Source: a virus
Lineage: Duplodnaviria; Heunggongvirae; Uroviricota; Caudoviricetes
Strand: one strand, 5' to 3'
Length of the DNA stretch: 33,575 nt
IMG/VR virus record: IMGVR_UViG_637000261_000005
Positions within the stretch are counted from its first letter, which is position 1. Every line of letters starts with the position of its first letter. Positions 1,916-25,340 of the stretch are shown here, piece by piece. The position numbers and the translations under genes were made by a program. The notes under the pieces were generated by a model. It did not search any database. It was not told the origin of the DNA and saw nothing but the letters and a program-made list of their open reading frames with translations.

Positions 1916-2010
1916 AGCGACCTCTCTTATTGTAGTGCTTACACTATTCTAGGTTGTATTCTCTAAGATTTAAACATGACTTTCTCTATATAATGATTTT
2001 TAGCATTAGT

Positions 2011-2042
2011 TAATAAACGAACGGCACTCTAAGGAGCGCCGT
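2011..2042 (-). terminator. Rho-independent terminator downstream of the 1039-aa gene
   Basis: Minus-strand RNA forms a 9-bp stem (ACGGCGCUC / GAGUGCCGU with one G·U pair) around loop CUUA, followed by UCGUUUAUU. Confidence 0.4.
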
Positions 2043-2050
2043 CAAAGATA

Positions 2051-5000
2051 TTATTCTGATGTCACTCTTTGCGAGTGAGCTATTTTTAAATCAGCGTTTC
2101 CTTCAAATACTATATTCAACTCATAGTTAAGAGTTAGCTTGAATTTATCTGAGTCACTTTTGATATTCTCTGAAGTGACATTTACTAACTTATTATTATC
2201 ATATTCTCTAATAATTAATTTAGTGAAGTAGTTATCCTTTACCACAAGAGAAAATGGTTGATTAACAAATGGTAAGAAGTAAACCTTACGGGTACCGGAT
2301 TCAGTAGTTATGTTCATAGAGCCATCATCATTTTTTCTCATTAGTTCTCTGAGGTTGGGATTATCGAAAAGCATACGATTATATTGCTGAAAGATCTCTT
2401 TACTCATCACAAGAACCAGTTTGCCAGCCAAGTCAGCAGATGATTTTATGTGATCAATCAACATATTGAAATCTTCTATTACGGTATGTTGCGAACAGCC
2501 AGTGCTAAATAAATTTGAAAGTATTATTCTCTGGATGTCCTTGAGAATTAAGTCTGCTTGAATATCACCTTCATTGATATAAGGGATGGATTCTATTCCT
2601 TCGGCATACGGTTCTTTATCTATCTTAATAGATATCTTATGTTTTGTGAAACAATCGCTAGCCTGCTTAAAATCAATAGATTTGAAAAGTGAAAGAGGGA
2701 GCGTTTTCTTGATGCGTTTACGAAGATGTTCTGATGTTTTACGTGCAGTGCTATCTAGTCGATGTACATCTATGGCAGCATCCTGAAGTCTCATATCAAG
2801 ATCTTTCTTTAGCATGTTAATATGCTCTTGAAGCAACTTTCTTAAGTTTTCTTTTTTTGTTTGGAGATCGTCCAATGTTAAAGTCAGCTTGATTTTAGTG
2901 TATTCGATGGAGTTACAAATTTTTGATAATACTCCAATGAGTCGTTGCTTCTCACGATATGTTATATAGTTGTTTTCTATTGCTTCTTTTATTTCTTTTG
3001 ATACGCTATCGTTCTTTTTAGAAAAAATTAATAATAGCTGAACCCATGATTGTTCCATATCAATAAATCCACAGTCAAAAACATTACTGTAAACTCTGCC
3101 CATCACCATGTCTGTTTTATCATAGTCACGTAAACGCCTTGCTAAACTATTCATCCACCCATTGTGCTCCATATTTTCAGACCATGTCCACAGGCAGATT
3201 CTAATTAATATCTTGATTAGTTGGCTTGCATTATCAATTTCTTCAGTGGGAGTTTCATATCCACCGGTTTGGTCAATAAGTTTACCCTCTAAAATAAGTT
3301 TAATGTAATGTGTCATTAGTTTGTCAGAAGTATTGATTCTTGATGTCAGATAAAGACATGTGCATATACGCATGTCAGTCAACGCATTTATGATGGCAAT
3401 ATTGAACCACTCTCTGTCTGAATTGAAGTTTAGTTTTTTGGATATGAAAAAACCCGGGTTAAAAAGCTGGCCTTTGTAACTGTATTTTTCTACCGAATGG
3501 CTGTCAATATTCATTGAGTGCTGCCATCGGTTAATAAGATCGACGGCTGTATCAATAGTAGAAGGATCGCGAGTCTGTGTTGCATCAATAATCATCGATG
3601 GAAGTTCTTGTAGTTGCGTTTTGCAAAATAATTCAAATAAATCTGAATTCTCTGTATTGCAGAAACGAAAGTTTATGCTTTCTTGATATTGCTCCCAAAC
3701 AGTGATATAGGTTCTTAATATACGATTATAACGTGAACGAAGCGAGGCATTTAAGAGTGATTGGTTGTTTCGGAACCATTCTGTTAATATTGACCATTGT
3801 GAACGAGTAATTCCCATATAGATACAAAGTTCATTGCTGATAAGATGTTTTCTATTATTGATAATACGCACTCCGCTCCAAAGACATAATTCAAAAAATC
3901 TTTCAGAAAGATTAATTTTATCCATGGAATTATTTGATATTTTATAAACTTCATCTGAAAACTCATATTGAAAACTCCGTTCAAATAATTCTGTAGTGAT
4001 CAGTAAGAAGTTATTGTTGGTATTATCATCTTGAAAAAAATACAAATCGCAGAGATTATTAAAGTTATTAATTAATGCAGAGATAGCATTGTCAAAACTA
4101 ATGAGATCAGAATCCCGCAGATACATATACGTATCTGCTGTTATAGCCTGCATTGTAAGACTTACGGAAAAATCTCCTCCTTTAATCGGAGCCCTATAAA
4201 AACATTGCTTAAGTATTTTTATTAATAAGCTGTCTGGTTTGATATTTTTAACGCTAAAAAGTATCTTACCCGTGGATTCTGTTTCTTTTGTACGATTATC
4301 ACCAATGACAAATGACGCAAAATGATTCTTCTTTTTTAGTTGGTAATTAATAAGATTAAGAGTAAGTTGAAAAGGACGGTGATATAAACTTAACTCATCT
4401 TCCTTAGAATAACTGCTAGCCACAGATATGTATTCTCCTTTGTAATCGGCTTGCGTGATTTCTAAATTTGAATAGTTATGTTTTTGATAGATAGGGTATA
4501 ACCTAAGCTTGGCTGAGATTTTGTTACAAATATGGGGCATTACTATTTCGAAGGCAATGTATCGCTTTATAATTATTTGCCGTTTTACATCATCAAGAAT
4601 TTCAAGACTCACGATAAAGAACCAAATAGAAAGAACTATGTTTATCAAAAGCCATAATATGCTGATTAGACAAGCTATACCATAAAGATAACTTCCAAAG
4701 ACAGTTTTAATTAGTACACTGAGAAGTATAAATCCTGATAAGAAAAGCCCGCTGAGTCCAGCAAGCATGAATCCTGAGTAACGCTGATAAGCAGTTTGGG
4801 CTATTTTTCTATCTGCCTTTTTTTGGAATAAGACACTTACTAAACCTATAACAAGGGGGTATACAATACCAATAATTGTCAATTGGCCACTTAAAATGGT
4901 TGTTTGCCATTCGGTTAATGAATGCCTAAACGGGAAATAATGTAAAAGATTATTTTTTATAAATAATTCGTTTAAATATCCAACATAAAGTAGTACAAAT

Positions 5001-5170
5001 GAAAAAGCTGATATGCAAAGTACTGATTTAACCGGTGAGGATGTTAATCTTATGATGTTTTTTTCAATAAAATTCCATTTTAAATTCGAATAAAATGGAT
5101 TTTTAACCATTTTATTACGAACATAGTTCTTTGCTAAAATCTCTGTTGCACTTAAAAATTGTCCAATCAT
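2051..5170 (-). CDS. Large (1039 aa) membrane-anchored protein of unknown function; candidate phage-defence/abortive-infection cargo
   Basis: A single uninterrupted ORF in a strongly AT-rich island. Four to five hydrophobic helices lie in about residues 48-200 (VLCISAFSFVLLYVGYL; LTIIGIVYPLVIGLVSVLF; FMLAGLSGLFLSGFILLSVLI; YGIACLISILWLLINIVLSIWFFIVSL), then about 840 aa of N/K/I-rich soluble sequence. I see no Walker A, RT, HNH or other recognisable motif. It has the same orientation as D and ogr. Confidence 0.7.
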   Translation of the reverse strand: MIGQFLSATEILAKNYVRNKMVKNPFYSNLKWNFIEKNIIRLTSSPVKSVLCISAFSFVLLYVGYLNELFIKNNLLHYFPFRHSLTEWQTTILSGQLTIIGIVYPLVIGLVSVLFQKKADRKIAQTAYQRYSGFMLAGLSGLFLSGFILLSVLIKTVFGSYLYGIACLISILWLLINIVLSIWFFIVSLEILDDVKRQIIIKRYIAFEIVMPHICNKISAKLRLYPIYQKHNYSNLEITQADYKGEYISVASSYSKEDELSLYHRPFQLTLNLINYQLKKKNHFASFVIGDNRTKETESTGKILFSVKNIKPDSLLIKILKQCFYRAPIKGGDFSVSLTMQAITADTYMYLRDSDLISFDNAISALINNFNNLCDLYFFQDDNTNNNFLLITTELFERSFQYEFSDEVYKISNNSMDKINLSERFFELCLWSGVRIINNRKHLISNELCIYMGITRSQWSILTEWFRNNQSLLNASLRSRYNRILRTYITVWEQYQESINFRFCNTENSDLFELFCKTQLQELPSMIIDATQTRDPSTIDTAVDLINRWQHSMNIDSHSVEKYSYKGQLFNPGFFISKKLNFNSDREWFNIAIINALTDMRICTCLYLTSRINTSDKLMTHYIKLILEGKLIDQTGGYETPTEEIDNASQLIKILIRICLWTWSENMEHNGWMNSLARRLRDYDKTDMVMGRVYSNVFDCGFIDMEQSWVQLLLIFSKKNDSVSKEIKEAIENNYITYREKQRLIGVLSKICNSIEYTKIKLTLTLDDLQTKKENLRKLLQEHINMLKKDLDMRLQDAAIDVHRLDSTARKTSEHLRKRIKKTLPLSLFKSIDFKQASDCFTKHKISIKIDKEPYAEGIESIPYINEGDIQADLILKDIQRIILSNLFSTGCSQHTVIEDFNMLIDHIKSSADLAGKLVLVMSKEIFQQYNRMLFDNPNLRELMRKNDDGSMNITTESGTRKVYFLPFVNQPFSLVVKDNYFTKLIIREYDNNKLVNVTSENIKSDSDKFKLTLNYELNIVFEGNADLKIAHSQRVTSE

Positions 5171-5260
5171 GAATTACTCTTCTATAAAGTGTGGGTCTAC
5201 TAACTAAACTGGAACTTTTACTATTGAGTCATATTCCCTTGGACGGGATGGACTGTGAAG

Positions 5261-5266
5261 ATTATA
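5261..5266 (-). promoter_or_regulatory. Candidate sigma70 -10 hexamer (TATAAT on minus strand) about 90 bp upstream of the 1039-aa ORF
   Basis: The plus strand reads ATTATA at 5261-5266; there is no convincing -35. The position is approximate. Confidence 0.2.
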
Positions 5267-5418
5267 CTTGACTTCCTCTGTCATGTGGGAAAAACATCCG
5301 TATTATTGTTAGCATCTGGTTGATGCCCCAACCTCTGACATCTAGTGGGCTGATACATTATCTTTTGTTCTTACTGTCAGTGTAGAAGCACATCTCAAAA
5401 ATAATATTTTTAAGAGAT

Positions 5419-6528
5419 TTATTCTGTTTCTGCTATCCATTCCGGGATTTTTGCTTCAAGTTCAAGCTGCGTGGTAAAGCCGCTGTTATCAATGGTGTGC
5501 TCGGCTTTTGCAATAGTCCAGTCCTGATAATCAATCTCGCTTTTAAAGCCTGTCACTGTGCCATGCATTTCGGGATAGAGTTCTGCACGACCACGCGCCA
5601 GCGTGATGGAGAATGATGCGGCTCCGCGTTGTAGCTGCTGCCACTTTGCCGCCGCTGCGCGTCTTGCTGCCTGCTCGTTCTGATAAGTCTTGCGTAACAC
5701 AAACACGTTGCCTTCCGCACCTTCCATATAGTCGCCTTCCCGACTGCTGCTTTTCTCCTTTTTGGGTTTTGGCGGTTTGCGGCGTTTCACGCTGACTTTT
5801 TTCTTTTTCCCGTAATTAAGATCAAGCCAGTAGGCGCGTACCCCCGTATACGCCTCGCGGTCAGCAATGCGGAACTGATGGCGATCGCCGCTGCTGCGTG
5901 TAATGGCGAACGAGGGCAACGGCTGCCCCTGTGCGTTCACGCCACCACCTGGCATGATGAATAACAGATTGCCGCTTTTTACCGTGGCGATTGCTCCCAG
6001 CATTTCCGCCATGCGCGTAAGAAAGGACATGTCGCTTTCTTCGGTCTGGTCGGCGTGGTCGATTTCGATATCCATCAGCATTTCGCTGATTTGCGGTTTC
6101 AGACCGTACCGATGAGTGATGGCGGATACCACACGCTCAACGGTCACATCATGCCAGGACACCTCACGTTTAACGTTAAATTCATCCCGAAAATCTGCGC
6201 TTCTGGCTGAAACAGTCAGCCTGTCCGGCGGTCCTTCGTGAGCGATTTCATCAACAATGTAAGTGCCTTTTTCTGTCAGCGGTTCCCCTTTCCAGCCAAT
6301 GAGAACCGTCAGACGCGCGCCCCGTGGCGGTAGCTGCAACTGACCATCCGCATCATCCAGCGTGATGGTGAGCTGGTCCGCCTCAAATCCCCGGTTGTCG
6401 GTCAGTTACAGGCTCATCAGGCGCTCCGCCACGCCTGACAGCGTTTTACCCTCCGAGAGAATATCAAAATCCGGCATTTTCACGGGGGCCGTGCCCTGAC
6501 TGAGCAATTGCATGGTGGTGTCGGTCAT
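5419..6528 (-). pseudogene. D: P2 gpD-like tail protein, interrupted by an in-frame TAA at 6406-6408
   Basis: The N-terminal ORF (MTDTTMQLLSQGTAPVKMPDFDILSEGKTLSGVAERLMSL*) and the 306-aa ORF are in the same frame. They are separated only by TAA (plus strand TTA at 6406-6408), and the reading frame is open on both sides. RBS GGGAGGGA lies before the ATG at 6528. The C-terminal part resembles P2 D (…VLIGWKGEPL…GTYIVDEI…). Confidence 0.8.
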
Positions 6529-6685
6529 CTGCTCCCTCCCTGTGCGGCATGGTCGCATGTGCGTGCGGAGGGGGTTACTGCTTTTTGTTGTCGCCGTGGC
6601 GGGAGAACGGCGCAGGGGTGAGATTACGCGCGTGGTGGGTGATGATTGTTGCTGAATCATTTAACGGATACAAGGGGCTGAAGCT

Positions 6686-7870
6686 ATGAGTGAAACTCGT
6701 TTTCATGGTGCCCGTGTTACGGAGAATACCGACCTGGTAACAGCGATTAACGATGTTGATTCCAGCGTTATCGGTATCGTGGCAACGGCGGATGATGCGG
6801 ACGCGAAGCTGTTCCCGCTGAACAAGCCCACACTGCTGACCCGCGTCAATGACGTGCTGGGAAAATGCGGGACAACGGGGACGCTTTATCGTGCGCTTAA
6901 GGCCATCGCAGACCAGGTGAGCACAAAGGTGATCGTCGTTCGCGTGGCTGAACACAAAGAAGAAGACGGAAAGACGCAGGATCAACTGGTTATCGGTGGT
7001 TCTGAGGATGACGGCAGCTATACGGGGATGTATGCGCTGCTTGTTGCAGAGCAGGATGAAAGCATCGGATACCGTCCGCGTATTCTGGCCGCGCCGGAGC
7101 TGGACACGGAGGCGGTAACAAAATCCCTGTGCGTGATTGCAGATAAACTGCGCGCGTTTGTGTATGCCTCATGTCATGGCTGTAACACGATGGCCGAGGC
7201 AATTACCTACCGCCAGAAATTCAACGAACGTGAGGTGATGCTCTTATGGCCGGACTTCATCGCCTACAACCCGAAAAATGGCAAAAACGAAACGTTCCCC
7301 GCGCCTGCCTATGCGTGCGGCCTTCGTGCGTACATTGACCATGAACAGGGATGGCACAAATCGCTGTCCAACGTTCCGGTTAAAAATGTGCTGGGGATGT
7401 CGAGGCATGTGTTCTGGTCGTTGCAGGCCGAAGACAGCGATGCCAACAGCCTCAACGACAAAGAAATCACGACCATTATTCGTCGCAACGGGTTCCGCTT
7501 CTGGGGTAACCGCACACCGGAAACGAACGCCTACATCTTTGAGGTGTATACCCGAACCGCACAGGTGCTGGCTGATTCAATTGCGGAAGCGCAGTTTGAA
7601 ACCATCGACAGTCCACTGACGCCTGCGAATGTGAAGGATGTTATCAGTGCCATCAGGGCAAAACTGGATTCACTGGTGACTGCCGGGAAACTGATTGGCG
7701 CGGAGTGCTGGTATGACGTGGTGGATAACAGCACCACGGATTTACGTCAGGGACGTGTGCGTATTCGCTACAAATATACGCCCGTTCCGCCACTGGAAGA
7801 CATGGAGCTTTACCAGACGTTTACTGATGAATACTTTGAACCCGCATTTGCGGTGCTGGGAGGTGCCTGA
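6686..7870 (+). CDS. FI: Tail sheath protein (P2 gpFI-like)
   Basis: 394 aa with the contractile-sheath family pattern (…NPKNGKNETFPAPAYACGLRAYIDHEQGWHKSLSNVPVKNV…RNGFRFWGNRT…). RBS AAGGGG. Its stop overlaps the FII start (ATGA). Confidence 0.9.
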   Translation: MSETRFHGARVTENTDLVTAINDVDSSVIGIVATADDADAKLFPLNKPTLLTRVNDVLGKCGTTGTLYRALKAIADQVSTKVIVVRVAEHKEEDGKTQDQLVIGGSEDDGSYTGMYALLVAEQDESIGYRPRILAAPELDTEAVTKSLCVIADKLRAFVYASCHGCNTMAEAITYRQKFNEREVMLLWPDFIAYNPKNGKNETFPAPAYACGLRAYIDHEQGWHKSLSNVPVKNVLGMSRHVFWSLQAEDSDANSLNDKEITTIIRRNGFRFWGNRTPETNAYIFEVYTRTAQVLADSIAEAQFETIDSPLTPANVKDVISAIRAKLDSLVTAGKLIGAECWYDVVDNSTTDLRQGRVRIRYKYTPVPPLEDMELYQTFTDEYFEPAFAVLGGA

Positions 7871-8380
7871 TGGCTGTGCCAAAACATCTTCGCTTTTTTA
7901 CGCTGTTTGTGGATGGTGAAAACGAAGTGGGTAATGTGACGTCCGTCACTCTGCCTAAGCTGACGCGCAAAACCGACAGCTACCGGGGTGGTGGCATGAT
8001 GGGTGCGGTAAGTATTGATCTCGGTCTGGACGACTCCGCGCTTGATGCGAGCTTTGTCATGGGGGCGCAGTTCGTGAGCTGTTCCTTAAGTATGGCGGCA
8101 CGATTGACGGCACGCTGCTGCGTTTTGCGGGTGAATACTACACCGATGCAGAAAGCGACCTGTATGAAGTCGAAATGCGCGGACGTGTGACGGAAATTGA
8201 TATGGGGGAAGCCAAACAGGGCGAAGCCACATCACACACTTACGCCATTAAAACACCTACTACAAGCTGAGTGTTAACGATCGCCCGTTGTGGGAGATTG
8301 ACCTGCTGAACTTCATTTACCGGAAGGACGGCAAGGACATTGTGCCCGATCGCATCCGTTCCGCGCTTGGGCTTGGCTGA
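7870..8380 (+). pseudogene. FII: Tail tube protein (P2 gpFII-like) with two frame disruptions
   Basis: Frame 1 (MAVPKHLRFFTLFVDGENEVGNVTSVTLPKLTRKTDSYRGGGMMGAVSIDLGLDDSALDASFVMGAQF) runs to about 8072. It continues in another frame (RELFLKYGGTIDGTLLRFAGEYYTDAESDLYEVEMRGRVTEIDMGEAKQGEATSHTYAIKTP) to about 8257, then in a third frame (YYKLSVNDRPLWEIDLLNFIYRKDGKDIVPDRIRSALGLG*) to 8380. All three pieces resemble P2 FII. Both breaks look like 1-bp deletions (TTCGTG for TTCCGTG; ACACCTAC for ACACCCTAC). Confidence 0.8.
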
Positions 8381-8435
8381 TAAGTAATATGCTGGCGGCG
8401 CAGTGCGTCGCCTCTGACTGAAAAGGAGACAACAG

Positions 8436-8810
8436 ATGAAAGACATCGATACTGAAACCCGGAATAACACCGTGGCGGATAATGTGACGGCAGTTGAGGA
8501 TATGGCTGTCGAACGTGGCGTAAAACTGACCCGACCAATTGAGCGTGGTGCCGAAAAAATCACGTATGTGGAGATCACCGGGGCTATTGAGCAGGCTGGA
8601 TCCCTGCGTGGTCTGTCGCTGTCTGATGTGCTGAATCTGAAAGCGGATACCATGTTCACGCTGTTGCCTCGCGTGACCTCGCCACGACTGGATGAAGTGA
8701 TGATTAAAAAAATGTCGTCACGCGATTTTATTCAGTTGTGCGCTGTGGCTGTAAATTTTATGAGCGAGCCAGACTCTGGCGCGAAGAGCGTGCAGGAGAC
8801 GGCAGCGTAA
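8436..8810 (+). CDS. E: Tail assembly chaperone (P2 gpE-like)
   Basis: 124-aa ORF with RBS AAGGAG, in the conserved position between the tube and tape-measure genes. Confidence 0.7.
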   Translation: MKDIDTETRNNTVADNVTAVEDMAVERGVKLTRPIERGAEKITYVEITGAIEQAGSLRGLSLSDVLNLKADTMFTLLPRVTSPRLDEVMIKKMSSRDFIQLCAVAVNFMSEPDSGAKSVQETAA

Positions 8811-8923
8811 TCACCCTGGTGTGCTTTGAGCACATCGAAGATCTGGTGGCGGATATTGCCGCCATTTTTAACTGGTCGCCCGCCGAAATCTTCATGATGA
8901 CGCCCGGCGAAGTGGTTAGCTGA
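8436..8923 (+). CDS. E': E+E' extended chaperone made by programmed -1 frameshift
   Basis: The -1 frame is open from 8708 to the TGA at 8921-8923, overlapping the E 3' end. An A7 run at 8706-8712 sits exactly at the start of the overlap and is the likely slippery site. This arrangement is conserved in P2-like phages. Confidence 0.5.
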
Positions 8924-8924
8924 C

Positions 8925-11768
8925 GTGAGCGGGCGGCACTTCGTAGCGGGAATGCAGACAATGAAGACTCTTGATATCCGGGTCGCTTTCAGCGCCGTTG
9001 ACAGGCTGACCCGGCCTGCCGAAAACGCCCGCCGCCTGATGGGGCAGTTTGGTGACTCCATCCAGCGAACGCAGGGGGCGATCAAAAATCTCGAGCGTCA
9101 GGCGCGATCATTTGAGCGCGCCCGTGACGCTGTCAGTAAAGCGGATGCTGGCATCGTGAAAGCACGACGCCAGCTTAACGCCCTTAATCAGTTACAACGC
9201 ACGGGTACAGTGCTCAGCGAAAAACAACAAAAGCTGATGCAGCAGTTAAGCACCCGGCTTGAACGCCTGAATGAATCGCGCACACGGGAAATTCAGAAAA
9301 TGCGGGAGCTTGGCGGAGAGCTGAAACGCCACGGCATTTCCCTGACAGGTAGCGATAACACCATCCAGCAGGCCATCAGACGCACCGAACAGTACAACAA
9401 CCAGCTTGAACGCGAACGGCAGGCGCTTGCGCGTGTAACACGGGCGCGTGAGCGGTATTCGCGCGCGCAGGAAACAGCGGGAAAACTGAAAACAGGTGGT
9501 GCGCTGGCAATTGGTGCGGCAGCGGCGGGCGGCTATGCTGCCGGGCGTTTTTTGCAGCCTGCGATCGGGTTCGGCAAAGAGATGTCCCGCGTTCAGGCAC
9601 TGACGCGAATCGACCAGAACAGCCCGCAGTTTAAGGCGCTGCGTGAGCAGGCGTTAAAACTTGGCTCTGAAACGCAGTTCACCGCAGGCGATGCCGCCAG
9701 TGGACAGGCATTTCTTGCAATGGCTGGCTTTACACCACAGGCCATTCAGGCTGCGCTCCCTGGCGTACTGAGCATGGCAACGGCTGGCGGTATGGACCTC
9801 GGTGAGACGGCGGATATTGGCTCAAATATTCTGACGCAGTTCGGTCTTTCTGCTGACCAGATGGACCGGGTCGGCGACACACTCACCGCAGCGTTTACCC
9901 GTACCAACACTGACCTTCGCGCACTGGGTGAAACCATGAAATATGCAGGTCCGGTGGCGGGTAAGCTGGGAATATCTCTGGAGCAGGCCGCAGCGATGGC
10001 GGGCGTGCTGGCGAATATGGGTATCAGGGGGAGTGATGCTGGTACGGCAATGCGTGCCAGCCTGGCTCGTCTGGCATCACCGCCAAAGGCGGCAGCAGAG
10101 GCGCTGAAAGAGCTTGGCGTGTCTGTCTCGGATGCCGGGGGCAAAATGCGCCCGATGGAGGATGTGCTGGCTGACCTTTATAAAGCTACCCGCAAATACG
10201 GGGAAGTTGACCGGGTATCGTTCTTTAAGGACATTGCCGGAGAAGAGGCTTTCACATCATTTATGGCCCTCGTTGATGCGGCAGGTGACGGCTCCTTACC
10301 CAAACTGAGAAAAGAACTTGAAGGCGCGCGCGGTGAGGCTGAACGCACGGCAAAGGTTATGGCCAACAACCTTGACGGCGATCTGAAATCACTCAGCAGT
10401 GCATGGGAAGGGTTGCGCATCCGCATTGCAGATCTGATTGACGGTCCGCTGCGTTCTGTCACGCAGTGGCTCACGCGTGTGGTATCAAAGGTGACGGCGC
10501 TGGCGCAGGCCCATCCCGCACTGACGCGCCAGCTACTGATTGCAGGCGGTGCATTGCTGGCAATGACTGCAACGGTTGGCTCGTTGTCGCTGGCTATTGG
10601 TGTGCTTGCTGGCCCGCTGGCAAAACTGCGTCTTGGTTTTTCCCTCCTGACCGGATCAATGAATGCTGTCAGGGTTCTGCCAGCACTATGGGGAATGGTG
10701 ACGGGTTCCGTTTCTTTACTGGGAGGCGCTATCGGGGCGTTGTTCAGTCCGGTTGGTCTTATCGTGGCTGCGCTTGCCGGAGCTGCCGTTCTTATCTGGA
10801 AATACTGGGATCCCATCAGGGCATTTTTTGCCGGGGTGTTCAGCGGGATTATGGAAAGGCTGACCCCGTTGCGCGAAACCTTTGAACGGTTTGGTCCTGT
10901 TTTTGACGCAATCGGGAGTGGGATCAGCCAGGTGTTTAACTGGTTTAAATCGCTGCTGTCACCGATGGAGTCCAGCAAGGAAACTCTGGATAAATGTACC
11001 AGTGCTGGCGAGATATTCGGTAACGTTCTTGGCGGTGCGTTACAACTTGTTCTGACACCTGCAAAAATGTTGCTGGATACGCTGGCGTGGATACTTGAAA
11101 AGCTTGGTGTGCTTCCGGATGAAGCGGAAAGGGCGCGCAAGAAAATCGAAGACGCACAGCGTGCGGCCATTCTTCAGGACAAGGTTGCCTTGCTTCAGGG
11201 GGATCTGGCGAAAATCAATCCGCCGAAGCCTGTGGAAAATGGCAATGGCACCGGAGGTGATAACCCCAAAGACAATAAACCGCTCACAGACAGCAATACC
11301 GGTACGCTGCGCAGACTCAGCAAAATTGCTGATAACACAGGTAAGCTGGTTGAGGAGACGAAAAAACGCATTGGCCCCGGCGATATTGTCTTTAAAAACC
11401 TGCCCCGAGCACTTGCTGTTCGTGGGGAGTGGCAGGAGCGGAAGATTGCGCAGGTCAGTAAGCCTGCCCCCGCAATTAATATCACACCCGTGGTTCCGGC
11501 TCCGCTGCCTCCGGCGCTGGTCCCTGTTGTTGCAGCCAGCTCCCGCCCGGTGGCGGAGGCTATACGATCTCCAGTGGCATCAGTTCCTGTAACTTCCCGT
11601 AACCGGGAGCCTGTTGCCTTCGGATTTGGTGGTGAAATTCATGTTCATCTGCATAACGTTGTTACGCAGAATCCCCGCGAACTGGCGAAACTGGTCGGTG
11701 AAATGGTCAGGGCAGAAATGGAACGGCGCGCCCGTGCCGGGCGTGGCTGTTTTTACGATAAAGATTGA
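8925..11768 (+). CDS. T: Tail tape measure protein (P2 gpT-like)
   Basis: 947 aa, GTG start directly after the E' stop. It is coiled-coil and Ala/Gly-rich with hydrophobic central segments, as is typical of tape measure proteins. Confidence 0.9.
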   Translation: MSGRHFVAGMQTMKTLDIRVAFSAVDRLTRPAENARRLMGQFGDSIQRTQGAIKNLERQARSFERARDAVSKADAGIVKARRQLNALNQLQRTGTVLSEKQQKLMQQLSTRLERLNESRTREIQKMRELGGELKRHGISLTGSDNTIQQAIRRTEQYNNQLERERQALARVTRARERYSRAQETAGKLKTGGALAIGAAAAGGYAAGRFLQPAIGFGKEMSRVQALTRIDQNSPQFKALREQALKLGSETQFTAGDAASGQAFLAMAGFTPQAIQAALPGVLSMATAGGMDLGETADIGSNILTQFGLSADQMDRVGDTLTAAFTRTNTDLRALGETMKYAGPVAGKLGISLEQAAAMAGVLANMGIRGSDAGTAMRASLARLASPPKAAAEALKELGVSVSDAGGKMRPMEDVLADLYKATRKYGEVDRVSFFKDIAGEEAFTSFMALVDAAGDGSLPKLRKELEGARGEAERTAKVMANNLDGDLKSLSSAWEGLRIRIADLIDGPLRSVTQWLTRVVSKVTALAQAHPALTRQLLIAGGALLAMTATVGSLSLAIGVLAGPLAKLRLGFSLLTGSMNAVRVLPALWGMVTGSVSLLGGAIGALFSPVGLIVAALAGAAVLIWKYWDPIRAFFAGVFSGIMERLTPLRETFERFGPVFDAIGSGISQVFNWFKSLLSPMESSKETLDKCTSAGEIFGNVLGGALQLVLTPAKMLLDTLAWILEKLGVLPDEAERARKKIEDAQRAAILQDKVALLQGDLAKINPPKPVENGNGTGGDNPKDNKPLTDSNTGTLRRLSKIADNTGKLVEETKKRIGPGDIVFKNLPRALAVRGEWQERKIAQVSKPAPAINITPVVPAPLPPALVPVVAASSRPVAEAIRSPVASVPVTSRNREPVAFGFGGEIHVHLHNVVTQNPRELAKLVGEMVRAEMERRARAGRGCFYDKD

Positions 11769-11780
11769 GGAGTCATGGCC

Positions 11781-12269
11781 ATGATGATGATCTACGGCAT
11801 GTTTGTTTTTGAGCTGCGCACGCTGCCGCATCAGCAGTTACAGCAAAACAAAAGCTGGCGGCATGTGAAAAATGAACGCGTTAACCGTTCAGCAAGCTGG
11901 CAGTATATCGGTGCAGGTGATGATCGCATCGTTCTTTCTGGTGTGCTTTATCCTGAAATTACAGGTGGCGAAGTGTCGCTGTCGCTGCTGACTACGCAGG
12001 CGTATACAGGACGACCCTGGCCTTTGATTGATGGCGTCGGGCAGATTTACGGCATGTATGTCCTGACTGAAACGAATACGACCCGCTCCGAGTTTGATCG
12101 CTACGGTAAGGCGAAAAAGATAGAATTTTCACTGACTCTTGAACGCTGTGATGAGGATTTGCGGGAGCGCCTGCAATCCTCATCGTTCAGTGATATGCTG
12201 TCCGGCTTCAAAGATAAGGTGACATCATCTCTTAACAGCGCGGCCAGTTCAGTTAAAGGGCTGTTCTGA
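11781..12269 (+). CDS. U: Tail protein (P2 gpU-like)
   Basis: MMMIYGMFVFELRTLPHQQLQQNKSWRH… resembles P2 U. RBS GAGGAG is 8 nt before the ATG at 11781 (the ORF track starts at 11775). Confidence 0.85.
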   Translation: MMMIYGMFVFELRTLPHQQLQQNKSWRHVKNERVNRSASWQYIGAGDDRIVLSGVLYPEITGGEVSLSLLTTQAYTGRPWPLIDGVGQIYGMYVLTETNTTRSEFDRYGKAKKIEFSLTLERCDEDLRERLQSSSFSDMLSGFKDKVTSSLNSAASSVKGLF

Positions 12270-12277
12270 TTTAACAC

Positions 12278-12308
12278 AAAAACCGCTAATGGTCAGATTA
12301 GCGGTTTT
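12278..12308. terminator. Bidirectional rho-independent terminator between the convergent U and invertase genes
   Basis: Perfect palindrome AAAACCGCTAAT-GGTCAG-ATTAGCGGTTTT flanked by T-rich runs on both strands. The invertase stop codon (12298-12300) lies within the right arm. Confidence 0.5.
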
Positions 12309-12897
12309 CATTTTCCTGAGTCTGCCCGGTTGTTTCTTCAGTCTGTATATCGCCTACAGGGTGATAACGATAAATCGTCGATGTGCCAATGCCGTAAATT
12401 ATTGCCAGTTGTTTTCTGTCGTGCCCGTTTTTGATTAGCCTTGCTATTTGCTCATGCTGTTCTTTTGTCAGCTTCGGTCGACGTCCGCCTGTGCGCCCCC
12501 TTGCGCGCGCTGCCGCCAGCCCGGCCAGTGTACGTTCAACAATTAATTCACGTTCCATTTCAGCCAGGGCACCCATCACGTGGAAGAAAAAACGCCCCAT
12601 TGGAGAAGATGTGTCTATGCTGTCGGTCAGACTGCGAAAATTAATCCCTCGCTCCCGTAGTTCCCCGACGAGAGAAATCAGATGTTTCATGCTTCGCCCG
12701 AGGCGATCCAGTTTCCAGACAACCAGCGTGTCACCTTTTTGAAGGCGCTTTAAAGCGCGTTTTAATCCCGGTCGGTCTGTCTTTGTCCCGCTTAATTTAT
12801 CTTCAAATATTTGTTCACATCCTGCACAAACAAGAGCGTTTTGTTGCAGGTCTGTATTCTGGTCATTTGTTGATACCCTTACATAGCCAATCAGCAC
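12298..12897 (-). CDS. pin: Serine DNA invertase of the Gin/Pin/Cin/Hin family
   Basis: (M)LIGYVRVSTNDQNTDLQQNALVCAGCEQIFEDKLSGTKTDRPGLKRALKRLQKGDTLVVWKLDRLGRSMKHLISLVGELRERGINFRSLTDSIDTSSPMGRFFFHVMGALAEMERELIVERT… is near-identical in pattern to Gin/Pin. The likely start is GTG at 12897 with RBS GGGAGA; the ORF track extends to a TTG at 12915. Confidence 0.9.
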   Translation of the reverse strand: MLIGYVRVSTNDQNTDLQQNALVCAGCEQIFEDKLSGTKTDRPGLKRALKRLQKGDTLVVWKLDRLGRSMKHLISLVGELRERGINFRSLTDSIDTSSPMGRFFFHVMGALAEMERELIVERTLAGLAAARARGRTGGRRPKLTKEQHEQIARLIKNGHDRKQLAIIYGIGTSTIYRYHPVGDIQTEETTGQTQENENR

Positions 12898-12951
12898 ACT
12901 GAATCTCCCGTCCAAAAGCGCAAATCATGCCATGCAGGCCAGAAACGGCCA

Positions 12952-12977
12952 TTATTTAAAACCTCGGTTTACGAGAA
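12952..12977. other. gix/hix-like 26-bp crossover site (right end of invertible segment)
   Basis: TTATTTAAAACC-TC-GGTTTACGAGAA compared with the gix consensus TTATCCAAAACC-TC-GGTTTACAGGAA. It lies at the start of the alternative fibre coding segment. Confidence 0.7.
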
Positions 12978-13673
12978 CTCGGCACAAGCGGGGAGAAAAT
13001 ACCGTTACTCAGTACAGCGAATACCTGGACCAATCGACAAACATTCAGCGGTGGCCTTTCTGGGGAACTGTCCGGCAATGCCGCTACTGCAACAAAGCTG
13101 AAAACAGCACGAAAAATTGCTGGAGTTGGTTTTGATGGTTCTAGCGATATCTCAATTAGTGCCAAAAATGTCAATGCATTTGCACTCCGACAAACAGGTA
13201 ATACTGTTAATGGTGATACATCCGTTGGATGGAATTGGGATAGTGGTGCATATAACGCCCTGATTGGTGGTGCATCTGCATTAATTCTTCACTTTAATAT
13301 AAATGCTGGTAGCTGTCCTGCCGTACAATTCCGTGTGAATTATAAAAATGGTGGCATTTCCTACAGGTCGGCTCGTGATGGTTATGGGGTTGAATTACGT
13401 TGGTCAGATTTCTATACCACGACACGAAAACCTTCAGCGGGAGATGTTGGTGCATATACGCGGGCAGAATGTAACTCAATGTTTATTACAGGTATTCGCC
13501 TTGGCGGTCTGTCATCTGTTCAGACATGGAATGGTCCCGGCTGGTCTGACAGGTCAGGTTATGTCGTTACGGGTTCAGTTAACGGAAACCGTGATGAATT
13601 AATTGATACAACACAGGCAAGGCCAATTCAGTATTGCATTAATGGGACGTGGTATAACGCGGGGAGTATTTAA
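12978..13673 (+). CDS. Alternative tail-fibre C-terminal segment (promoterless, expressed only after inversion)
   Basis: The open frame begins inside the gix site with no start codon (…NLGLRELGTSGEKIPLLSTANTWTNRQTFSGGLSGELSGNAATATKLKTARKIAGVGFDGSSDISISAKNVNAF…QYCINGTWYNAGSI*). This is the classic variable receptor-binding-domain pattern, and the end parallels the H C-terminus (…[14 protein letters not shown]). Confidence 0.7.
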   Translation, partial: LGTSGEKIPLLSTANTWTNRQTFSGGLSGELSGNAATATKLKTARKIAGVGFDGSSDISISAKNVNAFALRQTGNTVNGDTSVGWNWDSGAYNALIGGASALILHFNINAGSCPAVQFRVNYKNGGISYRSARDGYGVELRWSDFYTTTRKPSAGDVGAYTRAECNSMFITGIRLGGLSSVQTWNGPGWSDRSGYVVTGSVNGNRDELIDTTQARPIQYCINGTWYNAGSI

Positions 13674-13675
13674 CG

Positions 13676-14209
13676 ATGATGCACTTAAAAAACATTACTG
13701 CTGGCAACCCTAAAACAAAAGAGCAATACCAGCTAACAAAGCAATTTAACATCAAATGGCTTTATTCAGATGATGGAAAAAACTGGTATGAGGAACAAAA
13801 GAATTTCCAGCCAGACACTTTGAAAATGGTCTATTACCATAACGGCGTTATTATTTGTATTGAAAAGGATGTTTCAGCAATTAATCCGGAAGGCGCAAGC
13901 GTCGTTGAATTACCTGATATTACAGCAAATCGCCGGGCTGATATTTCGGGGAAATGGTTGTTCAAAGATGGCGTAGTGATAAAGCGAACTTATACCGAGG
14001 AAGAGCAGAGGCAACAAGCGGAAAATGAAAAGCAAAGCCTGTTGCAACTTGTCAGGGATAAAACCCAGCTATGGGACTCACAGCTACGGCTGGGCATCAT
14101 TTCCGACGAGAATAAACAAAAATTAACCGAGTGGATGCTCTATGCGCAGAAAGTCGAATCTACAGACACCTCCAGCCTGCCAGTAACGTTTCCCGAACAA
14201 CCAGAATGA
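13676..14209 (+). CDS. Tail fibre assembly protein, alternative copy (Tfa')
   Basis: [40 protein letters not shown]… shares N- and C-terminal motifs (…[18 protein letters not shown]…) with the G-like gene on the other strand. It starts 3 bp after the alternative fibre stop. Confidence 0.85.
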   Translation: MMHLKNITAGNPKTKEQYQLTKQFNIKWLYSDDGKNWYEEQKNFQPDTLKMVYYHNGVIICIEKDVSAINPEGASVVELPDITANRRADISGKWLFKDGVVIKRTYTEEEQRQQAENEKQSLLQLVRDKTQLWDSQLRLGIISDENKQKLTEWMLYAQKVESTDTSSLPVTFPEQPE

Positions 14210-14237
14210 GAGAAGGCCCGATATTGGGCCTTAATTT

Positions 14238-14766
14238 TTACTCAGGCTTTTGTGGCCATTCGGGATTTGCTGTATCCACACGGCTGACCAGAACGCTGTA
14301 GCGTTCCCATGACTCCAGTCGTGTGCGTTCCTCATCCATCGCCATATTCAGCCTGACAGCGCGTTCCAGTGGCTGAATAACGCTTTCAGCTTCAGAAAGC
14401 AACGCGACCTTTTGTGATTCGGCCTGTTGTTGCTGTTCGTCTGCTGTATAAATCCGCTTAACCACAGTTCCGTCCTTAAACATCCACTTCCCTGAATCAT
14501 CGGCACGACGATTGGCTGTTATATCTGGAATCTCAACGACACTAAAGCCTTCGGGATTAAGTGTTGGGGCATCTTTGGTTATGGCAACAATAATATTATT
14601 TTCGTCGTATACAATCTTTATGGTGTCGTCCTGAAAGTTATTTACTTCCTCATACCAGTTTTTACCGTCTTCGGACCATAACCAGATAACATCAAAATTC
14701 TTTGTTAGCTGATATTGTTCTTTTGTTTTTGGATTTCCGGACTTAATATTTTTTAATATGCTGCAT
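14238..14766 (-). pseudogene. G: Tail fibre assembly protein (P2 gpG-like) with a frame break in an A-run at the N-terminus
   Basis: The expected start ATG CAG CAT ATT AAA lies 4 nt after the H stop, but reads MQHIKKY* because of an A6 run (plus strand T6 at about 14749-14754). With A5 it would read [41 protein letters not shown]…, which matches P2 G. The long ORF in the track instead uses an upstream ATG overlapping H. Confidence 0.75.
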
Positions 14767-14769
14767 AAT

Positions 14770-16920
14770 TTACACCTGTGCGACGTTATACCATGTGCCA
14801 TTGATGTATTTTTGTATTGGTCTGAAGATGGCTTCATCATCGCCATCTACTTCACCAATGATTCTTAATCCGGTAATTGCGTGTCCGGCTTTTTCATAAC
14901 GACCACCACGCGCCATCAATTGAACAACACGCGTACCCAGGCGAACATCTTTTACATAGCGTGAATCAAAATTCCCCCAGTTGCTGGGCTGTATCTGACC
15001 GTTAACAGAAAATATTACCGAGTTATCTGTATTTCGCTGGCTATAGAAATGCCATCCTGCCTCATTGCCTAACTCTGCAACTACTGGACGGGTTGAAGCA
15101 CCCCATAAATTAAACGTTGCATTCTTTGTGGAGTTGTTGGAGCTGGATAGCGTGAATTTTTTACCATCCCCGGCCTGAATATTTTTAAAAGCAATAGCCA
15201 CTCCATTCTGAAAGCGGAATACACGCTGACTATTAGCATAAACATCCAGAATACCGTCTCCATTCTGTTTAAATCCGGTGTCATTATCACCAAGAACAAT
15301 AGAGCTACCACCTAACGCATTCGTCGAACCAACTCCAAGACTGCCATTAATGACAGCATTAACAAGAATATTTAGTGCATCCCATTTCAGCGTCATCAGG
15401 TCTTTTGTTGTGGTGCTCTGGCGGCTTCTCCATTTGAAATATTCATTGCCGTTGTCGCCTGTTTCAAACCACATGTATGAATCAGTGTCACCATCGGCAT
15501 CATTTTTAAATCCAATCTTCGCCCAGTCAGTATTTCGAATCCAGGCAAGGATTGAGTCATTTTCAAAAGTAAGCCCACCGGACAAGGTATCGCCATTTTT
15601 TTGCACGGCGTTACCAGCCCTGTTTACCGTTTCCTGTAAACCGAGGTATTCGATAACGGCAGCAACGGTCGATTTCGCAAGAATATCCCGCCCGACTTTT
15701 GTCAGGGTTGCCAGGCTGGCGACATCATTCCCCGTAAAATACGGAAACCTGTCTGCCGCAGTAGCAAGCCCGGCCAGCGCCGTCAGGGTGGCATCTTTCG
15801 GTTGCTTACCCGCAAGCGCGTTAGTCATGGTGGTCGCAAAATTCGGGGCGTTTCCCAGCGCCGCCGCTAACTCGTTCAGCGTATTCAGTGCGTCAGGTGA
15901 CGAATCTACAAGGGCGGCAATCGCAGCCATAACGAAAGCCGTGCTTGCGATTTGGGTATTATTCGTTCCCTGTCGCGCAGCTGGCGTTGTTGGCGTTCCG
16001 GTCAGCGCAGGACTGTTTAAGGGCGCTTTCTTGTTCGTTTCATCCATTACCGCCTTAACCGCTTTCGATGTCGCGGCCAGTGTTTCAGACGTGCTGTTGG
16101 TGGCACTACTGAGCTGGACTATCCCTTTTTGTGCCGTCGTGGCGTCCTGAGCGGTATATTTTGCGTTAGCAAGGTCATACGCGGCCTTTACTGCTTTCGG
16201 CGTTGCAGCCTGCGTTTCAGACGTGCTGTTGGTGGCGCTACTGAGCTGGACAAGGCCTTTTCGCGTCGTGCTGGCATCCTGCGCAGTATATTTACCGTTA
16301 GCAAGATCATACGCGGCCTTTACTGCTTTCGGCGTTGCAGCCTGCGTTTCAGACACGCTGTTAGTGGCGCTACTGAGTTGAACAAAGCCTTTTGCGGTCA
16401 GCGAGGCGTCCGGGTGACGTCGTGACTGTTCATGCTCTTTCAGTTTGTCATCCACGTAATCCACTGTGGCCATCACCATGGTGTTGTCCACGGTAAGCGC
16501 CACGGTGGCAGTGCTGGATACGGTCAGAATGGTGCGAAATGTTTGTGCACGACCGGACCCTTCGGCAACGGCTGGCTTGTAACTTTCGGCAGTATTTCCC
16601 ACCGCGATTAAATCGCCGTGCTCATCAAATACACCAATTTCCCGGATCCAGAATCCGCCCGTTTCAGGAGGAATAACCAGCTCCGCAATAATGCGGTTCT
16701 GATGTGTTGCGTCCAGGATGACGCGATTAACAGTATGTCGCCACACCTCATGCACCAGACGGGTCTGCTTACTGTCTGGTGTGGGCAACGTGCCGCCACC
16801 GTCGCCCACGGCCATATGAGTCAGGCGGACAGGCTTACCATCTGGCGCGGCTACCTGAGCTAATTTTTTTGCACCCGTATCGGTGATAATGGTTTTAAAT
16901 TTTCGTGTTGTGGTACTCAT
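14770..16920 (-). CDS. H: Tail fibre protein (P2 gpH-like). The constant N-terminal part lies outside the invertible segment and the current C-terminal part inside it.
   Basis: 716 aa; the N-terminus is conserved with P2 H. It contains three tandem 44-aa repeats and a gix site at codons 423-430. Confidence 0.9.
15631..15656. other. gix/hix-like 26-bp crossover site inside H (left end of invertible segment)
   Basis: Plus strand TTCCTGTAAACC-GA-GGTATTCGATAA; the reverse complement TTATCGAATACC-TC-GGTTTACAGGAA matches gix at 23/26. It is in inverted orientation relative to the 12952-12977 site and encodes H residues IEYLGLQE. Confidence 0.7.
15997..16392 (-). repeat. About three tandem 132-bp (44-aa) in-frame repeats within H
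   Basis: KG[FLI][20 protein letters not shown](AYDLAN.KYTAQDA) is repeated at H residues about 177-220, 221-264 and 265-308. The matching direct repeats are visible in the nucleotide sequence. Confidence 0.6.
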
Positions 16921-20366: not shown

Positions 20367-20643
20367 GGTTGTTATCCTCGTTGTTCAGTCGTTGCAGCCT
20401 GCGCTGTTCCAGTAATTCAATGGCCCGTTTATCCGCGTTACAGGTTTCCAGTGCATCCAGAAGGCGGTCGCCCCATATACCGAGATTTCCCCATGTGGGA
20501 GTGTCAGGGAAGGGGGGAGGCGTTACCGGTATGGTCAGCGTCTGCGGTATAAGCCGGACTGACGGCGCTGGCAGTGGCGCGTTCTGCGTGCCTGCGCAGC
20601 CTGTCAGTAAAACGAGCGTCAGGCAAAGCGTGGGCGCATTCAT
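20353..20643 (-). CDS. o-spanin (Rz1-like outer-membrane lipoprotein) in a frame overlapping Rz
   Basis: MNAPTLCLTLVLLTGCAGTQ… has a lipobox LTGC followed by Pro-rich sequence. It starts inside the Rz gene and extends past its end. Confidence 0.6.
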   Translation of the reverse strand: MNAPTLCLTLVLLTGCAGTQNAPLPAPSVRLIPQTLTIPVTPPPFPDTPTWGNLGIWGDRLLDALETCNADKRAIELLEQRRLQRLNNEDNNHAEN

Positions 20644-25219: not shown

Positions 25220-25340
25220 GATGGCAAAGCGTAACAGGCTGATACAAAGGGCTTTTGTTGTAAGAAAACGGCCAGAACAGAGGGTTAAGGAGAACAGTTT
25301 CGCGCGCGGGTAATCTTCCTGTAATTACTCAGGGGGAGCA

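Follow-up and report, generated by a model that had tools for sequence, protein, structure and literature searches.

The reversed FI-to-U tail block of a P88-like prophage is probably the normal gene order of its lineage, with a predicted activator box shared by D and FI

The core-gene organisation of P2-like phages has been described as "extremely conserved" in a 2026 survey, which has no wording on inversion, orientation or rearrangement for the reversed block (PMC13586616). Phage P2, Pseudomonas phage Dobby and Vibrio phage VP58.5 all display the collinear P2 order. The annotation of Escherichia phage P88 lists an invertase gene on the plus strand, followed by U, T, E', E, FII and FI on the minus strand and then by D on the plus strand, with a 157-bp spacer between D and FI. 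P88 has been induced and forms plaques, and Citrobacter phage phiSM is spontaneously released, forms plaques and lysogenises K-12 (PMC5285337, PMC6456863); the SEN4/5 phages were grouped with these two as plaque-forming phages of the same layout. In the genome maps of the P88, phiSM and SEN4/5 papers the reversed block passes without comment, and none of these papers applies the terms inversion, orientation or rearrangement to it. An explicit description of the FI-to-U inversion was not found in the literature, and the layout is already known in so far as published genome records display it. In this study, this tail block was analysed in a 33,575-nucleotide stretch of viral DNA (IMG/VR record IMGVR_UViG_637000261_000005, Caudoviricetes), referred to below as the window, in which an initial annotation had seen an in-place reversal relative to P2. 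The window very probably represents a P88-like prophage (genus Xuanwuvirus, family Peduoviridae), and the layout the normal working gene order of that lineage.

All P2 proteins were compared with the window by tblastn, which served as a protein-level dot plot, and Pfam profiles were used for the identities of the products. The P2 matches on the plus strand were FI (6704-7837), FII (7870-8338), E (8502-8777), T (8970-11129) and U (11781-12161), and Q and P were found on the same strand. The matches on the minus strand were D (6474-5422), ogr (1915-1718) and O, N, M, L, X, R, S, V, W, J, I, H and G, running from 25174 down to 14241. The Pfam assignments (sheath, PhageMin_Tail, GpU, GPD, Resolvase and Ogr_Delta) concurred with tblastn. 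These results bore out what the initial annotation had described, namely that FI to U (6686-12269) lie on the plus strand and V to G, D and ogr on the minus strand, that the block is reversed relative to P2 with D by itself on the opposite strand, and that a 157-bp spacer (6529-6685) separates D from FI; all of its coordinates were correct.

The same arrangement was found in a large set of relatives. In the comparison with phage records, which covered the tail region, 13 records, including P88, Xuanwuvirus P884B11 and phiSM, matched at least 80% of positions 5200-13200 in a single collinear piece at 93-98% identity, and the P88 and P884B11 records reached 96.1-98.1% identity across 94-97% of this interval, again in one piece. 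The window shares the P88-type order, in which U-T-E'-E-FII-FI are on one strand and D diverges from FI over approximately 155 bp. Moreover, 1102 of 5426 complete E. coli genomes carried at least 80% of the same interval collinear in one place, and the nearest of them, strain ETEC4088, was 99.67% identical over 17.5 kb of its prophage. Furthermore, when one genome per bacterial species was scanned with the P88 D protein, 47 loci were obtained (D 65-99% identical), which represented about 20 genera of Enterobacterales, including Salmonella, Serratia, Symbiopectobacterium, Edwardsiella, Erwinia, Pantoea, Klebsiella, Kosakonia, Brenneria and Rouxiella. In every FI-containing locus among the 47, V-J-I-G and U-T-FII-FI were on opposite strands, and D diverged from FI. 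Among IMG/VR loci with D 61-99% identical, the inverted layout was present in 80 of 80, and it was also present in Salmonella phage SEN5 (Senquatrovirus, D 62%), which lacks any invertase. Taken together, all relatives with D at least 61% identical had the inverted layout. Two contigs filed under Firmicutes, from Vagococcus sp. WN89Y (L004) and a Planococcaceae metagenome-assembled genome (L046), also carried this enterobacterial prophage with a D protein 97-99% identical; contamination or mis-binning of these two assemblies is likely.

These distributions bear on two explanations that would confine the reversal to this genome. The first is a recent in-place inversion private to this prophage that stranded D, which would account both for the reversal relative to P2 and for the presence of a D pseudogene in this copy. 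Intact P2-like relatives with the same orientation were looked for, however, and P88, phiSM and SEN5 all share it; P88 is identical in order and in spacer length, the 1102 E. coli genomes and all relatives with D at least 61% identical agree, and the stop codon in D was absent from all 40 relatives in which the codon could be aligned. A private event, as which the initial annotation had presented the reversal, can hardly be credited. The second is an assembly artefact at 6500-6700 and 12250-12320, a possibility that the initial annotation had also raised. One-base homopolymer indels in the window suggest that its sequence quality may be imperfect, but independently finished genomes, as well as phage genomes that were sequenced from virions, showed both junctions in the same collinear order (97-99.6% identity), which leaves this explanation with a negligible probability. 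Since the reversed block is common to many viable P88-like phages, it is not a rearrangement or an assembly error of this genome.

The lesions of the present copy were also considered. The initial annotation had noted a nonsense codon in D and had associated it with the layout. The TAA codon (codon 41, 6406-6408) was confirmed, and the orthologues of ETEC4088 and P88 are intact with TCA at this place; among the 40 aligned relatives, codon 41 encoded Ser in 31 and Glu in 9, with no stop. The association did not hold, as the stop is private and the copy carries other, unrelated lesions. FII has suffered two one-base homopolymer deletions (G6 to G5 near 8060 and A5 to A4 near 8249), the tail-fibre assembly gene G has an extra base nine nucleotides into the gene (14757), and the capsid gene N has a one-base indel frameshift at about 24150. 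In addition, a 1.3-kb IS2-family (IS3-like) element with open reading frames at 480-845 and 803-1708 occupies 401-1719 in the 3' end of ogr, of which about 65 codons are retained and the last codons are replaced by the element. An IS2 beside ogr was also observed in a few complete E. coli genomes. This copy is defective for reasons unrelated to its layout (the D stop, the FII, N and G frameshifts and the IS2 in ogr), and the lesions reflect either a decaying prophage or indel errors in the assembly. In the RefSeq record of ETEC4088, D (L002, 6220-7329) is divided into an 801-bp "VgrG/Pvc8 family" gene and a pseudo fragment; the full 369-codon frame is open, and the split looks like an annotation artefact.

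To address the origin of the layout, D and FI were concatenated and a neighbour-joining tree was built with VP58.5 as the root. In this tree, the 61 inverted-layout representatives came out as one clade, and the clade was made up by all 115 inverted-layout loci in which D and FI were both scorable, with none of the 61 P2-layout loci inside it. Phage Cartapus (Elveevirus, D 52%), in which an invertase separates the tail-fibre genes from FI, had the P2 order, and so did all 63 informative IMG/VR relatives of Cartapus. As judged from this distribution, the simplest reading is a single ancient inversion in the ancestor of the clade, with the P2 order as the ancestral state. The block of sheath, tube, chaperone, tape measure and U genes would have been inverted once in the common ancestor of Xuanwuvirus and its sister genera, such as Senquatrovirus, and would have been fixed since then. 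Alternatively, an FI-to-U cassette of another contractile-tail phage could have been inserted in the opposite direction. Phage tail modules are exchanged, and in this prophage mosaicism is clear for the tail fibre (H, 83% identical to its P2 counterpart) and for the gin region. However, the identities to P2 of FI (46%), FII (about 45%) and U (46%) are similar to those of the flanking D (48%), V (46%), W (44%) and J (54%), no discontinuity was seen relative to Cartapus-type phages either, and the P2 geometry is retained at the FI promoter; such a module replacement is improbable.

The invertase gene adjoins the U end of the block, and secondary-site recombination by a Gin/Hin-type invertase might accordingly have caused the ancestral inversion, or the block might still be switchable. 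At the U-side junction, where covered, the invertase was present in 13 and absent in 78 of 91 inverted-layout relatives, while 26 of 55 P2-layout relatives had one beside FI. A link between the invertase and the inverted layout was therefore rejected, as no association was found and the invertase was commoner among P2-layout relatives. The only gix-type sites in the window are the two 26-bp sites at 12952-12977 and 15631-15656, far from the ends of FI to U. A search for gix-like pseudo-sites at both block ends gave none (best match 15 of 26 positions), and the longest inverted repeat between the ends was 7 nucleotides, which is at chance level because repeats of at least 7 nucleotides occurred in 186 of 300 shuffles. 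The initial annotation was correct in stating that the block endpoints are distinct from the gix-like sites, neither junction showing such a site or a notable inverted repeat. Moreover, the clade contained a single orientation (115 of 115 scorable loci). None of the marks of a serine-invertase segment, that is, crossover sites, both orientations and consistent linkage to an invertase, was found for FI to U, and an origin through the invertase, or a block that still switches, is very improbable, even more so than module replacement. The invertase appears to be an accessory gene with no visible role in the inversion. The 5' part of gin with the adjacent gix (12542-12972) matched the gin regions of Mu and D108 at 93-97% identity, which points to a recent mosaic acquisition from, or exchange with, Mu-like phages. 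The segment between the two gix sites holds two alternative fibre ends and two assembly genes.

At the 3' end of the invertase gene, the claim that U converges on the invertase gene across a common palindromic terminator was upheld by folding of both strands. The predicted hairpin has a 12-bp stem flanked by an A-run and a T-run, begins nine bases after the U stop (12269) and overlaps the invertase stop codon (12298-12300); its folding energies were -15.7 and -17.1 kcal/mol on the two strands (z -3.5 and -3.7).

The spacer between D and FI was analysed in 113 unique sequences from relatives, with a median length of 153 bp. The motif GTTGT-N12-A[C/G]A was kept in 103 of the 113, many of which had the full dyad GTTGTC-N10-GACAAC. 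In these relatives the centre of the box lay at a median of 69 bp from the D start codon (interquartile range 68-70) and of 84 bp from the FI start codon (interquartile range 82-87), compared with 88 bp to FI in the window, 83 bp in P2 according to its annotation and 85 bp in Cartapus as counted on the sequence. On the FI side, the -10 hexamer had A at positions 2 and 5 and T at position 6 without exception (113 of 113). On the D side, the columns 6549 (A) and 6553 (T) were invariant in 113 of 113, 6556 was C in 110 and 6557 was A in 100; read on the D strand, A at position 2 and T at position 6 of the extended -10 were invariant, and the upstream TG was present in at least 100 of 113. A single dyad box thus lies midway between two outward-facing late genes with symmetrical predicted -10 elements, as in the PP/PO type of P2. 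Transcription is predicted to start near 6542 for D and near 6653 for FI, approximately 111 bp apart. A scan revealed no sigma-70-type -35/-10 consensus pair inside the spacer, which fits activator-dependent promoters. The longer form TTGTTGT-N12-AGAAC occurred exactly twice in the 33.6 kb of the window, in the D-FI spacer (6585-6608) and in the O-P spacer (25255-25278). Elsewhere, including upstream of R (20367-20520), the box gave weak matches with one or two mismatches inside genes, which were treated as chance.

These features suggest how the reversal could have been tolerated. The inversion would have brought the FI late promoter and its Ogr box beside the 5' end of D. Because the box is a dyad, one bound activator could serve two promoters that face away from each other, and if the dyad moved with the block, D would have gained a late promoter at once. 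FI to U would be transcribed rightwards from the -10 located 46 bp right of the box centre and end at the bidirectional terminator after U, and D, which in most relatives is directly followed by ogr, would be transcribed leftwards from the extended -10 located 46 bp left of the box centre. The view of the initial annotation that D is orphaned, without an upstream operon, is thus not supported, given that D has a conserved Ogr-type box at a median of 69 bp and a predicted extended -10 of its own.

An alternating G/C block, CAYGCGCGCGCG (consensus, 6556-6567), was observed just upstream of the predicted D -10, and it is among the best-conserved parts of the spacer in the 113 relatives, more so than the -10 hexamer. 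A similar run, CGCGCGCG, is located at 25300-25309 in the O-P spacer, upstream of the predicted -10 of the P promoter. As a speculation, a leftward D-ogr unit would be a short route to positive feedback on ogr. A more far-reaching proposal, that the late switch has been rewired into a D-ogr unit with an Ogr-dependent extended -10 promoter bearing the conserved CAYGCGCGCGCG block, must be considered doubtful. If it were true, the D-ogr unit would either place ogr under tight positive feedback or give the baseplate hub a control input of its own, which P2 does not have.

Several points weigh against this interpretation of the layout and its promoters. The two spacers in which the box motif was counted are also those from which it was derived, hence the two exact matches are not an independent test, and independent support for the activator box comes from its conservation among relatives. 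The box of the window has AGA instead of ACA as its right half (TGT-N12-AGA at 6589-6606). The promoters, the start sites and the dependence on Ogr are predicted from conservation and the P2 precedent. The D-FI tree is a simple neighbour-joining tree without bootstrap support, and the layout can be called known only through published annotated genomes.

Between D and ogr, a 1039-codon open reading frame (2051-5170, minus strand) was found in an island of about 2000-5500 that has 33% GC compared with about 54% in the phage backbone. The N-terminal residues of the product, approximately 190, resemble several membrane helices by eye, and the 1039-residue protein had no match in Pfam, NCBIfam, PADLOC, PDB sequences or the phage collection. 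Only 5 of 5426 complete E. coli genomes had the gene, and PGAP labels it there as "MFS transporter" or "hypothetical protein". Since inserts of different sizes occupy this site in several relatives, the D-ogr position looks like a cargo hotspot, and the 1039-codon gene is a candidate defence or exclusion gene. A sequence with two mismatches to the late-promoter box, TTGTTCT-N12-AGAAG, was noted at 5365-5388 between the D stop and the beginning of the cargo gene; this may be a chance match or a late promoter for that gene.

Table 1. Positions of the tail block, its neighbours and the predicted regulatory elements in the window. The E and E' coordinates were carried over from the ETEC4088 annotation.
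Feature	Coordinates	Strand	Remarks
D, baseplate hub/spike (Phage_GPD)	5419..6528	-	pseudogene in the window copy; TAA at 6406-6408, codon 41
D/FI divergent late-promoter spacer	6529..6685		157 bp; D start 6528 (-), FI start 6686 (+)
Predicted D promoter, extended -10 TG-n-GACCAT	6549..6557	-	centre 46 bp from box centre
Predicted Ogr/Delta-type activator box, GTTGT-N12-AGAAC (TGT-N12-ACA class)	6587..6608		centre 6597.5
Predicted FI promoter, -10 GATGAT	6641..6646	+	centre 46 bp from box centre
FI, tail sheath	6686..7870	+	tblastn, Pfam
FII, tail tube, broken	7870..8380	+	two one-base homopolymer deletions
E and E', tail assembly chaperone pair	8436..8974	+	E 8436-8810; GpE-family part 8819-8974
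T, tape measure protein	8961..11768	+	tblastn, Pfam
U, tail protein	11781..12269	+	tblastn, Pfam
Predicted bidirectional intrinsic terminator, common to the FI-to-U operon and the invertase gene	12279..12308	both	fold prediction
Gin/Hin-type serine invertase, accessory gene	12298..12897	-	Pfam Resolvase
Invertible tail-fibre segment, Mu type	12952..15656		gix sites 12952-12977 and 15631-15656
TTGTTGT-N12-AGAAC, second exact copy	25255..25278		divergent O/P late-promoter spacer

With respect to practice, P2 is the wrong synteny template for some P2-like prophages, as the sheath-to-U block is reversed in a large and common clade of Enterobacterales phages, which about one fifth of complete E. 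coli genomes carry, and annotation or quality-control pipelines that flag this order as a rearrangement or a misassembly would err. Moreover, a divergent D/FI promoter with a shared box offers a testable account of why the inversion was tolerated, and it would repeat the shared-site design of P and O in P2.

Compared with known systems, the window is closest to P88, P884B11 and phiSM, with which it shares 96-98% nucleotide identity over 5423-13200, collinear in a single piece, as well as the gene order, the invertase beside U and the 157-bp D-FI spacer (checked in P88). It differs from these phages in its 1039-codon cargo gene, the IS2 in ogr, the D stop and the FII, N and G frameshifts. Its invertible segment with 26-bp gix sites and gin is of the same kind as the Mu G segment with Gin and the Salmonella Hin-type systems, whereas FI to U has no crossover sites and occurs in one orientation only. 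With the F operon of P2 (FI-FII-E-E'-T-U-D, from PF), the window has in common the genes (33-48% protein identity), the type of activator box and a similar distance to FI (88 bp versus 83 bp); the TGT-N12-ACA box that P2 has about 55 bp upstream of the start of FI transcription has its counterpart here, with AGA as the half-site in the window. In P2, however, D directly follows U and the operon follows V to G, whereas in the window D is separate, on the opposite strand and upstream of FI, and FI to U converges on the V-to-G operon. The predicted D/FI arrangement is closest to PP and PO of P2, which are annotated with starts at 3016 and 3127 around a single activator site at 3057-3087; in both cases one dyad lies between two outward late genes, with starts (annotated in P2, predicted in the window) approximately 111 bp apart. 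The P/O pair is the only known case of this design in P2, and the window would add to it a D/FI pair of the same kind.

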